Positions 1 through 60,519 of a stretch of 64,000 nucleotides of DNA are shown here, one piece after another. The stretch's first letter is position 1. The number at the start of each line of letters is the position of its first letter. A program made the position numbers and the translations under genes. Origin of the DNA: a virus (lineage: Duplodnaviria > Heunggongvirae > Uroviricota > Caudoviricetes); the IMG/VR virus record IMGVR_UViG_3300006201_000003, positions 64,095 through 128,094 of that record; one strand, given 5' to 3'. Below the pieces are notes generated by a model, which had not been told where the DNA came from, did no database searches, and saw only the letters and a program-made list of their open reading frames with translations.

Positions 1-631
1 TCAAGGATTCACCAGTCCCACGCTCATAATAGTTGCAAAAATATCTGGCAGCGCTTTCGGCATCTGTGATTTCGCAAAAGGCGTCAAAACTGCCGCCAAA
101 GTATTCCATGTTAGTTTGGATGTTGCTCATTAAGTAATCAAGCTGGCCTGTAACATCCATTCCTTCAACAGACTGGTTGTAATATAGACTCCACTGACAT
201 AGGCCGTAATAGTCACTACCGTCCAGTGAGTAAATGTCCCATTGTAGATCGAGCGTCTGCCCACCGCACTCGGTCATCATATTGCCAAGGATGCCAGCGA
301 TAACAGGATCTGAAAGCCCTTGCTCATTCAAGTATTCATATACTGTGCCAGCAACGGCGTACTCAGATTTCAACCGTTCAGATTTAGGGGGGGGTGTAAT
401 CTGTTCGCTGGCAACCGCAATCTTGGGAACTTGATAGGCTTTATCGTAGGAAAATGTACTTGCAGTGACTCTATACAATGTCGGCTCTGCCTGACACATG
501 GTAGACTGCGGCGCTGGTTTCTGGATGCTCAAAATCGTAACAACAAAAATGGATACTATCACGCACAATGTTAGTGTGATTATTTCTGTTACATTTGCCG
601 GCCTATGGCCGGCTCGTCGCTTCGTCATCAT
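1..631 (-). CDS. Partial CDS continuing past the window start: membrane-anchored lytic transglycosylase (SLT)-like protein.
   Basis: Manual minus-strand translation is open from an ATG cluster at 631-637 to position 1. It has an N-terminal TM helix and a TECGG...GLCQWS motif resembling the SLT ES...GLMQ signature. RBS AAGAGGA lies upstream. A G8/C8 tract at 381-388 is in frame (encodes PPP). Confidence 0.45.
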   Translation of the reverse strand, partial: MMTKRRAGHRPANVTEIITLTLCVIVSIFVVTILSIQKPAPQSTMCQAEPTLYRVTASTFSYDKAYQVPKIAVASEQITPPPKSERLKSEYAVAGTVYEYLNEQGLSDPVIAGILGNMMTECGGQTLDLQWDIYSLDGSDYYGLCQWSLYYNQSVEGMDVTGQLDYLMSNIQTNMEYFGGSFDAFCEITDAESAARYFCNYYERGTGESL

Positions 632-683
632 TCGCATATCCTCTTTTCTTTGATTTAATTCGCCACTTTATGAAACACGAGTT

Positions 684-1061
684 TCATTCACTCTTTTTCT
701 GTTGATCTGCAAGACATTGATTGATATAATCACAGACCTCGCAGTATTCCCGCATAGCGTGTGCAAGCTGCTCCTGCTTTTCCTTTGGAAGTGTCTCTGC
801 GGTTTTTCCAAGCAACATTGTCATGTGGTCAAGCGGAATGGTCAAACTTCCAGTTGCAACAGATAAATTAGACTGCGGAAAGTATTTCTCATACGGTTGG
901 TTCATCCAATCGTGGAACCATTCTTCACGCTCAGAATTGATTGGAAACCACATAAGACCAAGTAGGGTTGCTTCAAAAAGAGGTTGCGGAAGAGTGCGCA
1001 GATATTCAAAGACAGTCATAGCATACACCTCAAAACTTAAACCCCTTGGTTTGATATCCAA
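684..1061 (-). CDS. Hypothetical protein.
   Basis: 125-aa ORF from the six-frame track; same orientation as neighbouring genes. Confidence 0.5.
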   Translation of the reverse strand: MDIKPRGLSFEVYAMTVFEYLRTLPQPLFEATLLGLMWFPINSEREEWFHDWMNQPYEKYFPQSNLSVATGSLTIPLDHMTMLLGKTAETLPKEKQEQLAHAMREYCEVCDYINQCLADQQKKSE

Positions 1062-1335
1062 GGCTCACTTTCTTCCACTCCGCTTTCAGAAGTGCTTTCA
1101 GCTCTGTAACAACACCATTACACATTTGCTTTGTTGCGCCAAGAACTTCATACTCACATAAGTAAGTGCGGTCTTCTGAAACACCAAAGCCTACATAGAT
1201 GCGTAGAGTGTCAGCCCATTCTATAATGGAGTCGATTGTTCTCTTGTGCTGTTCATAGTAGGCTTGGGCATCACCTACATTCTCTTCAAGAAGAAATGAG
1301 CCTCGCACATACTGCTGTTTTGCCATATAGTTCAC
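1030..1335 (-). CDS. Hypothetical protein (GTG start).
   Basis: 101-aa ORF, tightly packed with its neighbours. Confidence 0.45.
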
Positions 1336-1778
1336 CGTTTTCCAGTGGTGCCAAAACCACCACGATCAGCATTTCCCAGTGTTTCAACAGCCTCAAAAGA
1401 CAGCTGAGGTTGGTGCTTATCAATGCGGAACTGGCAGATGCGGTCGCCAACATGAATCACAGTATCACGCATAGCAATGGCGGGGAAGTACCATTGGTCA
1501 TTATCACCGCAGTAACTCTCGTCGATCATGCCAATATGGTTGGCCTGAATAATACCAAAGTTTTTGAAAGTGGAGCTACGCGGAATCATATATGCCTCAT
1601 AGCCAGTTGGGAGCTGCATAGCAACGCCCAAAGGAATCATCTTGAAATCGCCCTTCTTCATATCCACTTCCTCAGCAGCCCGAAGGTCAATCCAGTCGGA
1701 CTTCCCACCAATATACTGTAGCGGCTTAATTTTGTCGCTCAAATAACGAATCTTGATTGTCTCAGTCATATCAAGCAC
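1332..1778 (-). CDS. dut: dUTP diphosphatase.
   Basis: 148 aa; C-terminal [14 protein letters not shown] matches dUTPase motif V, and upstream motifs fit the dUTPase fold. Confidence 0.8.
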
Positions 1779-1782
1779 CTCC

Positions 1783-2268
1783 TTAAATTCTTGTTCTCTT
1801 CCAGAAATTTTTCATCTTATATGAAGAGTCCTTAGTGACATCCGCCGTGAAACACGGGAGCAATTCAAAATTCTCAGCGGCCTGTACGCTCGGAAACTCG
1901 ACCTCCGCATACATGAACTCGGTGTCACGCCCCTTATCGACATGGGAACATTCCAATTCCAGCCCGCCTGGAAGCTGATAGATACGAAAATCCTTTGTAA
2001 TGAATGGCTGTGTAATCATCTCTGCCATAGCGTAGAAGTGCTCCTTAGTAATATGGAACTCAACCTCTTGACGAACCAACTCTCCGTTGGACTTAATAGC
2101 GAGGAAGTACGCTACATCCTGACCGTTCACTGCGTTGCGCCGGATTCTGACCTCTGGATCAATGGACAGATAGGCTTGATAAACCTGGAACTCCTCTTTT
2201 AGAGGAAGATTGGTTGGAAATGAGTTAAGCAAAAACTTACGCTCAATTTCAATAAATTTGTCTTGCAT
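1783..2268 (-). CDS. CYTH-domain protein (triphosphate tunnel metalloenzyme / CyaB-like).
   Basis: 161 aa; the N-terminal IEIERKFLL is the CYTH ExExK signature. Confidence 0.65.
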
Positions 2269-2284
2269 TTTGGTATTACCTCGC

Positions 2285-58638: not shown

Positions 58639-58772
58639 GTTCCATACCTCCAAAAATTTTGTTGTGGGCGCTGCCCTCTATTCTTGTTACAAGACTTTTC
58701 CCCGTTCTGCTAACCGTTCCAAAAAACTTTTTGAAATAGCAAAAGGCCGGGGAAATTCCCCGGCCTCCGTCT

Positions 58773-58949
58773 TTACGCCTCCAGAATCAACTTAATTGCC
58801 TCGTCCGTTGTGATGATCTCTTTATTGTAGAGACTCAGCGCCCGTGCCACGTTACGGAATTTTTCGGCCTTGTGTTCCTCTTTCATCATAGGATTTCCCG
58901 CCGTCCGTTCCATAACATCGGCGGCATAGTCCAGCACAAATTTTTTCAT
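58773..58949 (-). CDS. Hypothetical small protein.
   Basis: Start MKKFVLDY. Confidence 0.4.
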   Translation of the reverse strand: MKKFVLDYAADVMERTAGNPMMKEEHKAEKFRNVARALSLYNKEIITTDEAIKLILEA

Positions 58950-59016
58950 GTGTTCTGCTCCTTCCATATTCCAGCGGGCGGATACCTCGCAGCATCCGCC
59001 CGCTGTCCTCGTTCTG

Positions 59017-59376
59017 TTAGATGAAGTACATTTCGCCGTTGATTTCCAGGGCTACGGCCTCCTGCCCCATCTCATTTTTCAGCGCCTCGCAATGGTCAAC
59101 CACGGCGGCGATCCCGTTCTGCAAGTCCTCATCGCTGGCATAGGCGAAAACTACGGTTGTATTCTCAGCAACCAAGCCGGCCACGGGAGAGAGCCAGTAG
59201 CCCAGGGCGGCGGTGGAGGTGGAGCCGCCGAAGAGATCAGCCAGGAGCGCGGCGGTCTTTTTGACCTGCTCCGTGTTGTCGGTGGCATCGGCTACGCCGT
59301 TCGTGGCGGGCACGTAAACGGTAACTTTGCTGGAGAGCTTGATGCAGGCTTTCAGTTTGGCATTGTTGATTTTCAT
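59017..59376 (-). CDS. Hypothetical protein.
   Basis: Start MKINNAKL after AAAGGGGT. Confidence 0.5.
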   Translation of the reverse strand: MKINNAKLKACIKLSSKVTVYVPATNGVADATDNTEQVKKTAALLADLFGGSTSTAALGYWLSPVAGLVAENTTVVFAYASDEDLQNGIAAVVDHCEALKNEMGQEAVALEINGEMYFI

Positions 59377-59493
59377 AGTATGTAACCCCTTTTCTTTTAT
59401 CGTGGGGCCGGTGGTGGTGATGTCCACCGGCCCGCCTGTTACCTATTACATTTTGATTTTGTTCGTTGCTAACCGGAAGTAAAAACTTTTTTT

Positions 59494-60288
59494 TCACGCC
59501 ACGCCAGCCGACAGGAGAGCCGCCCGGATTTTAGCAATCCGCTTATGGACCGCCACATTGCTGATCTTGTTATCCAGCGCCTGGGCGATCTCGCGCTCCG
59601 TGTAATTCTGCTGTACCAGCTCGACGATCTTCCGGTCGATCTCATCCCGTCCAGCCGTGAACCGTTCCAGATCAACCCGAATAACGGCGCTTGTCTCCGT
59701 GTCATAGCCCGCAGCGGCCACCCTCGTTTCCGTCCAGCTTTCAACGTCGCCGTTATCGTTGACGATCTCAGGGTCTTGCATCGCTTGCCCGTGCTTTTTG
59801 TCCGCCTCCCAAATTGCCATAATTGCGGCTTTTGCGGCATTGTATACAAGGGATTTCAGGGAGCGAGGGCGCAACCCCTTAGCGGCGCGGCGCTCGTTGG
59901 TGACGGCCAGACGGTCAAAGGCATCATAGAGCTTGATATAGGCCGTGTTTACGAACTCGTCGAACTCGTGACCGTGCAAGCCCCAGGCGGCGCACTCGTT
60001 GAATTGGTGGTAGCGATCTTCGGTGCTGTAGCCGATCACGTCTTTAGCGGCCCGCACGGTGCAACGCTGGAGCCACTCGACCTGAGCGGCGGGAGCGGTC
60101 GCGGCCCACTCATTGACCACGGCGGCGGCGTTGATCTCAGCGTTGACGGCCTCAGCCTCAGCCCATGCCTGTTTCAGACAGAGAGAGAAAACGACCTCAG
60201 AGACGGCGCAGCCGATCTCAGCGGCGGCACTCTTGCGGATAGCCCAGGCGCGGCGCATGATAGCGGCCAGATTGTAAGTCTTTTTCAT
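59494..60288 (-). CDS. RNA polymerase sigma factor (sigma-70 family, region 4 HTH).
   Basis: The C-terminal IVELVQQNYTEREIAQALDNKISNVAVHKRIAKIRAAL matches the sigma-70 region 4 pattern; first gene of the leftward transcription unit. Confidence 0.6.
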   Translation of the reverse strand: MKKTYNLAAIMRRAWAIRKSAAAEIGCAVSEVVFSLCLKQAWAEAEAVNAEINAAAVVNEWAATAPAAQVEWLQRCTVRAAKDVIGYSTEDRYHQFNECAAWGLHGHEFDEFVNTAYIKLYDAFDRLAVTNERRAAKGLRPRSLKSLVYNAAKAAIMAIWEADKKHGQAMQDPEIVNDNGDVESWTETRVAAAGYDTETSAVIRVDLERFTAGRDEIDRKIVELVQQNYTEREIAQALDNKISNVAVHKRIAKIRAALLSAGVA

Positions 60289-60519
60289 AATATGTACCTC
60301 TTTCATTGATTTTATTCGCCGCTAAGGGAAAGAGCAGCGGCGGAGAACCGCCAGCCGACCCACCCAGGGGAGAACCGCCCCCCCCTTAACGGGTATACCC
60401 TATTCTACTATATTTTTTCCTATTTGTCAATGATTTTATTCGTCATTAAATGCTTTTCTTGCCAGTCAAAATATACAAAATTCTAACCGTTCAAATAGTC
60501 ATTTTGCCATAGCATTTCG

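Follow-up and report, generated by a model that had tools for sequence, protein, structure and literature searches.

Hypermutable G/C tracts as probable contingency loci in DNA-modification genes of a putative temperate phage of gut Oscillospiraceae

Why should a phage carry nine uninterrupted runs of 8 or 9 G or C nucleotides, two of which break reading frames? The question is raised by a stretch of 64,000 nt (hereafter the window; G+C content 46.5%) of the Caudoviricetes record IMGVR_UViG_3300006201_000003. It most likely belongs to a large, temperate phage or prophage whose hosts are gut Oscillospiraceae, since prophage-like loci related to it sit in bacterial genome records. The answer favoured here, with a probability of about 0.8, is that the tracts are simple-sequence contingency loci, i.e. 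sites of phase variation by slipped-strand mispairing. A preliminary description of the window had already suggested this, and the suggestion gains support from relatives, where runs occupy the same positions and differ in length between otherwise identical genomes. All tract lengths given below were read from consensus assemblies.

Exactly nine G/C runs of at least 7 nt occur in the window; six have a length of 8 nt and the other three of 9 nt (T1–T9, Table 1). This agrees with the number and lengths in the preliminary description; six of its coordinates stand, and the other three were 1–6 nt off (381-388 becomes 387-394, 23325-23332 becomes 23326-23333 and 60380-60387 becomes 60378-60385). 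The spectrum of G/C runs is bimodal, with 13 runs of 5 nt, one of 6 nt, none of 7 nt, six of 8 nt and three of 9 nt; A/T run lengths fall off smoothly. Under an order-3 Markov model, 26.5, 5.2, 1.0 and 0.24 runs are expected for lengths of 5, 6, 7 and at least 8 nt, and the maximum for the last class in 200 simulations was two. Relative to this model, long G/C runs are ~40-fold enriched and runs of 5–7 nt are depleted. An order-5 null was dropped, its transition table being contaminated by the tracts themselves. An explanation by recognition sites was also dropped, the tract flanks having no extended sequence motif. Four of the nine tracts are in frame within open reading frames (ORFs), where they encode PPP (T1), APPQP (T3), QGGAAW (T4) and TPPKK (T6). 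The frame is broken at T2 and T5 and restored at each by one added G, and T7, T8 and T9 are non-coding; these contexts are as first described. At the six tracts in ORFs, a change of one nucleotide in either direction truncates the product.

Relatives provide the decisive comparison. A scan of IMG/VR with the PAPS-reductase-like protein of the window yielded 45 contigs at 79–91% identity and 35 more at 53–60%. All 45 close relatives carry G/C runs of 7–10 nt (one of 20 nt) and nearly no runs of 6 nt; among the 35 distant contigs, only two have a single run of at least 8 nt. Flank mapping in the 45 relatives located orthologous tracts for T5 in 45, T4 in 40, T3 in 38 and T2 in 27, and these positions are kept though synonymous sites in the flanks are near saturation (proportion of synonymous differences, pS, 0.5–0.8). 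Further tract positions are common to the relatives; at these sites the window has no tract and encodes the same glycines by mixed codons or with one interrupting base (GGTGGTGGT, GGCGGTGGCGGA and G5TGG). Such interrupted versions are locked forms of the tract; those of the window include 17684-17692 and 26484-26499.

Lengths are as labile as positions are stable. The nearest relative contig (~96% identity) differs from the window at seven of the nine tracts, and three contigs from different samples (L029, L034 and L036) differ at two of six tracts with 0 substitutions in 20.7 kb. In pairs of genomes with 0 substitutions (119.5 kb aligned), 6/51 tracts (12%) differ and all six indels fall in tracts. 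In pairs <0.2% divergent (127.9 kb), 21/57 tracts (37%) differ and 21 of the 23 indels are in tracts. In pairs 0.2–5% divergent (2.17 Mb), the values are ~43% and 479/1,317, and the share of differing tracts saturates near 43%. Six contigs of the Joint Genome Institute (JGI; L106–L111) are 99.87–100% identical to the window, with T2 as the sole indel: it is G10 in L106, L107, L108 and L111, and the G9 of the window recurs in L109 and L110. The G8 of T5 recurs in L106, L107 and L109. As a rough estimate, the rate of length change per tract exceeds the substitution rate per nucleotide site by a factor of hundreds. The comparison of lengths among relatives, proposed at the outset, thus gave variability, the opposite of the stability that would speak against contingency loci.

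The genes so interrupted are under constraint. In Nei-Gojobori estimates made frame by frame between the window and its relatives, the correct frame of every segment has a proportion of nonsynonymous differences (pN) of 0.05–0.15 and a pS of 0.48–0.81, and the ratio of nonsynonymous to synonymous rates (dN/dS) is 0.05–0.17 where pS is unsaturated. In the three segments with saturated pS, pN is only 0.07–0.09. The other two frames contain stops and give ratios from ~0.8 to >2; dual coding of the out-of-frame tails is ruled out by these stops and by the lack of constraint. Purifying selection thus covers both sides of every coding tract, and because it is strong on both sides, the frame breaks appear to be OFF states of functional genes and not, as had been considered, genuine pseudogenes. 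Selection on the runs themselves is also apparent. In distant homologues of the PAPS-reductase-like protein, the residues equivalent to T5 form a variable D.DGK loop without a tract, so GGG is not a requirement of the protein. A need for Gly or Pro peptides as such was ruled out, since distant homologues do without them and the window uses mixed codons for the same Gly runs elsewhere. Tract-free genes use GGG less than any other Gly codon (12%), and GGGGGG encodes none of their 29 Gly-Gly pairs, and yet the tracts remain pure in lineages near synonymous saturation. This is counted in support of the contingency-locus reading, as selection would act on the nucleotide run and not on the peptide.

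Three genes outside the methyltransferase region contain tracts. The PAPS-reductase-like gene had been described as truncated by its tract, and this holds: with the frame repaired at T5, the protein matches one stretch of phrog_424 (residues 7–308, E=1.3e-49), and distant homologues are uninterrupted single ORFs in which one high-scoring segment pair spans the T5 site. The 56 codons downstream of T5 have a dN/dS of 0.07. All 45 relatives have T5; 14 keep the frame there and 31 do not, and the close pair L001 and L002, 23 substitutions apart, has G8 and G9. In the window (G8) the gene is predicted to be OFF. A run of 20 G is found as the T5 orthologue at position 10751 of L019 (IMGVR_UViG_3300045988_153480); it may have arisen by true expansion or as a polyG artefact from two-colour chemistry. 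The gene product also matches the PADLOC model BrxP (E=5e-19) and, weakly, SspD. Two PAPS-reductase-like paralogues and a cysteine desulfurase lie at 19764-20594, 21974-22904 and 26983-28110; the other paralogue matches SspD of PADLOC (E=1.8e-12) and the desulfurase matches SspA/DndA models (E~1e-113). This hints at a phage-encoded pathway of DNA (or tRNA) sulfur modification with one gene under tract control. The gene orf142 has no family match in Pfam, PHROGs, PADLOC or the Protein Data Bank (PDB), and its dN/dS is 0.09. Its homologues have divergent N-termini, each with a run of C7–C9 at a lineage-specific position. In the lysozyme-like gene, the nearest relative (L105) has C9 at T1, which creates an immediate TAA stop. 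Both orf142 and the lysozyme-like gene are predicted to be ON in the window.

The densest group of tracts, T2 to T4, lies in a C5 DNA methyltransferase. Judging from its reading frames, this enzyme is naturally split into two ORFs. The alpha ORF contains motifs II–VIII, a zinc ribbon, a first target-recognition domain (TRD1) and a natural stop, with T4 and T3 inside. Its TIGR00675 alignment begins at profile position 21, and positions 21–211 of the PF00145/TIGR00675 profiles are covered. The 295-aa protein is identical on nine contigs; 34 close database clusters have the same N-terminal start and natural end, and some methyltransferase clusters contain >1,000 member sequences from public assemblies. 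The beta ORF starts at TTG 18254 or ATG 18245, overlaps the end of the alpha ORF and contains TRD2, motifs IX–X, a motif-I-like tail and extra TRD-like modules. It covers profile positions 273–328 across Pfam and TIGR00675 scans. Purifying selection extends through it, with a dN/dS of 0.05 in TRD2 and 0.12 in the extension; in motifs IX–X, pN is 0.089 and pS (0.805) is saturated, so no ratio is given. JGI called it as a 247-aa gene from TTG 18254 in L106–L108, where T2 is G10. The tract at 18153 had been taken to separate the two halves of the enzyme, a view that has to be revised: the real alpha/beta boundary is at 18229-18254, and T2 truncates the beta ORF ~95 nt after its start. With G9 at T2, the ORF is cut after ~31 codons by a stop four codons past the tract, and with G10 it is fully open; its ON lengths are G10 and G7, and lengths of 7–10 occur in more distant relatives. 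T4 is ON at 8, a length found in 20 relatives, with out-of-frame lengths of 9 in 15 and 7 in five. T3 is ON at 9, found in 14 relatives, with 8 in 20, 10 in three and 7 in one, all out of frame; in one relative it has decayed to C5, in frame. Database ORFs often end exactly at T3 or begin at T4. In the window, alpha is predicted to be ON (T4=G8, T3=C9) and beta OFF (T2=G9), and because beta is OFF, C5 methylation is probably absent.

Several further observations concern this enzyme and its surroundings. The alpha ORF begins at motif II (FCEFDKYAAESY), and a motif-I-like segment, VVGSFFSGIGAFEKAL (FSGIGAFE), sits after motif X in the beta ORF, with further TRD-like modules beyond it. Inspection of these motifs suggests a circular permutation; TIGR00675 and Pfam models do not detect the motif-I-like tail of beta. 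An alpha homologue of 80% identity (P0030) has an intein (PF14890, Hint-type) within catalytic motif IV (GGSPC|...HN|CQDF). Pfam and PADLOC scans of the neighbouring genes revealed no restriction partner beside the methyltransferase. In relatives, an NPPY adenine methyltransferase upstream of the C5 enzyme carries a C8/C9 tract as well, and as many as eight tracts occur in 2.7 kb of the methyltransferase region. Further afield, the metagenome-assembled genome (MAG) contig CAKSCV010000003.1 (L124; 57% PAPS-reductase identity) has four G/C tracts of 8–10 nt at 8777-11153, at least three of them inside ORFs of Dam-like (DPPY) and MT-A70-like adenine methyltransferases. The association of tracts with methyltransferases therefore reaches beyond the clade.

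Table 1. Tracts of the window and the genes and sites that accompany them (TRD, target-recognition domain; ON and OFF are predicted states)
Feature	Position	Strand	Run, window strand	Run, minus strand	Context
T1	387..394	-	G8	C8	In frame, T-PPP-K; linker from N-terminal membrane anchor to Phage_lysozyme2 domain
T2	18153..18161	-	C9	G9	Inside TRD2 (TIRTID-GGG-DKRVIE); OFF in window
T3	18447..18455	-	G9	C9	In frame, I-APP-QP; start of variable region before TRD1
T4	18921..18928	-	C8	G8	In frame, K-QGG-A; just past catalytic motif IV (GSPCQDFS)
T5	22144..22151	-	C8	G8	KTD-GGG-WTTTG; OFF in window, ON at G9
T6	23326..23333	-	G8	C8	In frame, Y-TPP-KK; codons 28-30 of orf142
T7	30689..30697	-	C9	G9	5' arm of small hairpin; between tRNA-Ser 31012-31101 and tRNA-like element 30357-30470
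T8	32645..32652	-	C8	G8	Shine-Dalgarno position; ends 6 nt upstream of TTG start 32638
T9	60378..60385	-	C8	G8	17 nt downstream of -10 box
Lysozyme-like gene	<1..631	-			Phage_lysozyme2 PF18013, E=1.4e-15; continues past window start
C5 methyltransferase beta ORF	17512..18254	-			PF00145 profile positions 273-322
C5 methyltransferase alpha ORF	18229..19116	-			295 aa; PF00145, E=3e-48
PAPS-reductase-like gene	21974..22904	-			309 codons; single gene broken at T5; PF01507; phrog_424
orf142	22987..23415	-			142 aa; T6 near 5' end
Membrane-protein gene	32471-32638	-			55 aa; TTG start
Promoter-like site	60430-60402	-			TTGACA-17-TAGAAT; strong

The three non-coding tracts are less uniform. Only the window has T7; in the nearest relative (L081) and in four more, the site is G4, in the form GGGGCG(A/G)TGCCCC (the GGGGCGATGCCCC hairpin). 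T8 sits 12 nt downstream of the ACGAATAAAATCA motif, and its site is G7–G9 in 7/20 relatives, where the membrane-protein gene has an ATG start. T9 lies downstream of a promoter-like -10 box and therefore in the 5' leader of gene 59494-60306; its site reads G9 in the nearest relative, whereas relatives farther away have G6TG.

Not everything favours contingency loci. T7 is five nucleotides longer than the ancestral G4 at ~4% overall divergence, a jump not readily explained by single-step slippage; the spacing of T8 to the start codon is constant at any tract length; and an effect of the length of T7–T9 on expression is conjectural. In coding tracts, searches with flanking peptides (tblastn) found the frame intact in 14/45 relatives for T5, 20/40 for T4 and 15/39 for T3, so that consensus states are in frame in only 31–50% of genomes per tract, and the order of lengths (8 > 9 > 7 or 10) is the same whichever length is ON. 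Such frame states fit mutation-driven drift with only episodic selection; equally, they fit an expression not strictly tied to the DNA frame. The latter would follow if transcriptional slippage or -1 ribosomal frameshifting always produced some full-length protein, giving constitutive reduced expression without switching. Recoding of this kind would account for strongly constrained sequence downstream of tracts that are out of frame in most consensus genomes and for a length distribution independent of the in-frame length, and the two breaks of the window both belong to the +1-nucleotide (-1 frameshift) type. Against it, the length of the site is not fixed, and all three frame classes, the in-frame one included, exist among near-identical genomes. 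In place of the fixed slippery length and stimulatory structure of a programmed frameshift site, lengths of 7–10 were found among relatives, and no stable structure, none better than in shuffled sequences, lies downstream of T5 (z = +0.34) or T2 (z = -1.15). The alternative frames past the tracts contain stops and are unconstrained, and bacterial RNA polymerase slips far less on G/C than on A/T runs. Recoding is thus unlikely as the explanation, although it and DNA slippage are not mutually exclusive.

Drift leads to another possibility, that the replication machinery of the phage or its host makes or expands G/C runs as a neutral by-product, with no selected function. The recent origin of T7 in non-coding DNA and ON fractions near those of random drift among lengths would suit it. 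It leaves unexplained why positions are kept across lineages with saturated synonymous divergence, why runs stay pure against codon bias while those of 5–7 nt are depleted, why tracts recur at different positions of the same gene (orf142) and why they are concentrated in DNA-modification genes, in a distant phage as well. Moreover, individual lineages lock tracts by interruption; loss is easy, and it is retention that needs explaining. A neutral origin is therefore very improbable. Sequencing error has one argument in its favour and against phase variation: one added G repairs both breaks, which is the direction of homopolymer under-calling, and homopolymers are the weak point of flow-based and nanopore chemistries. 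That both breaks are one-base under-calls is nevertheless hardly credible, given that the exact T2 and T5 states of the window recur in other JGI samples and that out-of-frame states of both the +1 and the -1 type exist. As a cause of the tracts themselves, the alternative raised in the preliminary description, artefact is refuted: the tracts and their positions are shared with 45 viral contigs of many different samples, with five bacterial records and with the six JGI contigs, and conserved runs of 8–9 nt cannot be created by error. The exact lengths read from this single assembly could still err by one nucleotide.

Phase variation by slippage remains the preferred reading, as the window and its relatives combine what is expected of contingency loci: enrichment of runs of hypermutable length, the placement of six of them in ORFs, polymorphism in near-identical genomes and genes that are kept functional. 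From these comparative patterns we infer slippage as the mechanism, reversibility within a population and an adaptive purpose. In the proposed scheme, slipped-strand mispairing during DNA replication would add or remove one G/C in a run of 7–11 nt, much faster than point mutation. Each step in a coding tract would shift the downstream frame, and the gene would toggle between ON and OFF undamaged. Selection would keep the runs pure in spite of codon bias, would place them close to 5' ends or in loops that tolerate them, and would purge accidental runs of intermediate length elsewhere; second-order selection would maintain the tracts. The main targets are DNA-modification genes, namely the split C5 methyltransferase, the PAPS-reductase-like gene and, in relatives, N6-adenine methyltransferases, so that several modification states would coexist in any phage population or lysogen culture. 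The benefit may lie in bet-hedging between hosts whose restriction requires a protective modification and hosts that attack modified DNA; in lysogens, the switches would also vary methylation of the host chromosome.

It is tempting to go further and to see in these genes a combinatorial epigenetic switchboard on a temperate phage, with runs placed in or by each target-recognition module, in both subunits of the split enzyme (multi-TRD and apparently circularly permuted), in N6-adenine methyltransferases and in a possible DNA-sulfur gene. This extension is speculative and rather doubtful. If true, independent slippage would yield many methylation patterns in virion DNA and, in lysogens, in the host chromosome, setting evasion of restriction by the virion against avoidance of modification-dependent nucleases, and the prophage would serve abundant Oscillospiraceae of the gut as a mobile phasevarion. 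A further idea considered was that compensating pairs of frameshifts might gate single TRDs.

Phase variation as such is a known trick; what is distinct here is the density of tracts, their bimodal lengths, their clade-wide conservation in temperate gut phages of Firmicutes type and their stacking in a split multi-module C5 methyltransferase. Closest in appearance are the hypermutable polyG tracts in receptor-binding genes of Fletchervirus phages of Campylobacter (Sorensen et al. 2021, cited in PMC12823448 and bioRxiv 10.1101/2025.10.21.683753). Both cases show several hypermutable G runs of 7–11 nt inside phage ORFs, with mixed progeny in Fletchervirus. Fletchervirus phages are virulent, switch receptor-binding genes and infect a Gram-negative host with polyG switches of its own, whereas the tracts of the window affect mainly DNA-modification genes of a putatively temperate phage whose host would be an anaerobe of Gram-positive type (Oscillospiraceae). 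The window, whose span leaves the structural genes outside, contains no receptor-binding gene, and none of its tract-bearing genes has the receptor-binding or tail-fibre location seen in Fletchervirus. Closest in logic is phage T2. Homopolymers of T2 and T4 act as contingency loci, among them one in agt, the alpha-glucosyltransferase gene of T2, where the trade-off is between two Type IV restriction systems (Gomez, Barrick and Waters, bioRxiv 10.1101/2025.10.21.683753). Reversible frameshifts in this DNA-modification gene let subpopulations escape opposed restriction systems, and the same logic is proposed for the methyltransferase and the PAPS-reductase-like gene of the window. The T2/T4 study deals with homopolymeric simple-sequence repeats of at least 6 bp at a density not far from chance; the clade of the window, known here from sequence alone, differs in its bimodal, clade-conserved G/C runs of 8–10 nt, up to eight per methyltransferase region. 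A polyG run in a phage DNA methylase gene has a precedent in Bordetella phage BPP-1 (Liu et al. 2004, cited in bioRxiv 10.1101/2025.10.21.683753), where one tract received a passing mention, without comparative or functional analysis.

Bacterial systems offer further parallels. Phasevarions rely on phase-variable Type III mod, Type I and Type IIG methyltransferases in Haemophilus, Neisseria, Helicobacter and Campylobacter (e.g. PMC4889913). As in the window, a simple-sequence repeat lies within the ORF of a DNA methyltransferase, and in phasevarions it switches methylation ON and OFF. Phasevarion enzymes belong to chromosomal restriction-modification systems, whereas the enzyme of the window is an orphan prophage C5 methyltransferase with three tracts in two ORFs. 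A preprint on epigenetic phase variation in the gut (PMC11741434) contains nothing on repeats or phages. The two-subunit architecture has its counterpart in M.AquI, with a large subunit that extends through motif VIII and a portion of the variable region and a small one that holds the remainder and motifs IX–X (PMC3404938, citing Karreman and de Waard 1990). The same division was found in the window, where alpha reaches through motif VIII and the proximal variable region and beta holds the distal variable region and motifs IX–X. Unlike in M.AquI, alpha starts at motif II and the motif-I-like FSGIGAFE stands past motif X in beta. Like the multispecific methyltransferases of Bacillus phages, the enzyme of the window has several TRD-like modules in its variable region.

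To our knowledge, earlier descriptions of hypermutable phage switches are confined to a few cultured phages that infect Gram-negative hosts. If the present reading is right, a dense, clade-wide set of switches is now placed in abundant uncultured, temperate phages of gut Oscillospiraceae. Metagenomic annotation would then routinely list as 'broken' methyltransferase and PAPS-reductase genes that are switchable, and a population of phages or lysogens is probably a mosaic in its methylation. Dysosmobacter segnis BX15 and Clostridiales bacterium CCNA10 are cultured lysogens open to direct measurement of switching and of what it does to restriction evasion or host gene expression.

The setting of the tracts can be summarized from the relatives and gene content of the window. 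Five bacterial genome records (four named isolates and one MAG) have tracts at the positions shared by the 45 viral contigs; over both sets, lengths are 7–11 nt, apart from the one run of 20. Within bacterial assemblies, close relatives share 81–91% amino-acid identity in the PAPS-reductase-like protein; they are found in D. segnis BX15, Oscillospiraceae bacterium 50-58, Clostridiaceae bacterium strain 9 and the complete chromosome of Clostridiales bacterium CCNA10 (AP018533.1, ~0.99–1.01 Mb). Cultured phages are remote: a megablast of 16 kb against the INPHARED phages gave no nucleotide matches, and the best cultured relatives by DNA polymerase III alpha subunit (PolIII alpha), the Clostridioides phages LIBA6276 and LIBA2945 (genomes ~130 kb), have only 42% amino-acid identity. 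An exact-protein look-up of a neighbouring gene (276 aa) returned no record; the same look-up with the methyltransferase alpha ORF did match. Nearly all genes of the window are on the minus strand. Pfam assignments include NrdD, a DnaE-type PolIII alpha, a primase-helicase, an RNA-repair-like cluster, an SPFH protein, a cysteine desulfurase like NifS/SspA, the C5 DNA methyltransferase, the two PAPS-reductase-like paralogues and the lysozyme-like protein.

Near T7, Rfam reports three extra matches to the tRNA model, of 114–118 nt and uncalled by ARAGORN, on the minus strand at 29906-30023, 30029-30143 and 30357-30470. They lie directly upstream of a DUF2828/DUF7788 (TROVE/Ro60-like) gene at 28193-29803, with RNA-ligase-like, kinase-like (AAA_33) and RlaP genes nearby, and may be Y-RNA-like (tRNA-mimic) RNAs of an RNA-repair module. 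At the other end of the window, the sign of the GC skew flips near 62 kb. The adjacent segment 60560-61160 is purine-rich and of low complexity, has no convincing ORF, is rich in indels relative to the nearest relative and overlaps a switch to divergent transcription. It contains (AGAC)x5 at 60627-60646, (GGAGAGA)x4.3 at 60691-60720 and the direct repeats GAACCCCGCCCC(C)GCCTCAGCC, and may be an origin or a regulatory region. Finally, a motif of 13 nt, ACGAAYWAAATCA, is present in 17 copies with at most two mismatches, versus 2.6 expected, a number reached in none of 100 shuffles. Copies include those at 651-663, 8309-8321, 19162-19174, 26937-26949, 28178-28190, 32665-32677, 38550-38562, 60307-60319 and 60431-60443. 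Fourteen are on the coding strand, mainly in short gaps right 5' of gene starts, and two abut TTGACA-17-TAnAAT promoters on their 5' side; the motif looks like a phage promoter or operator element.

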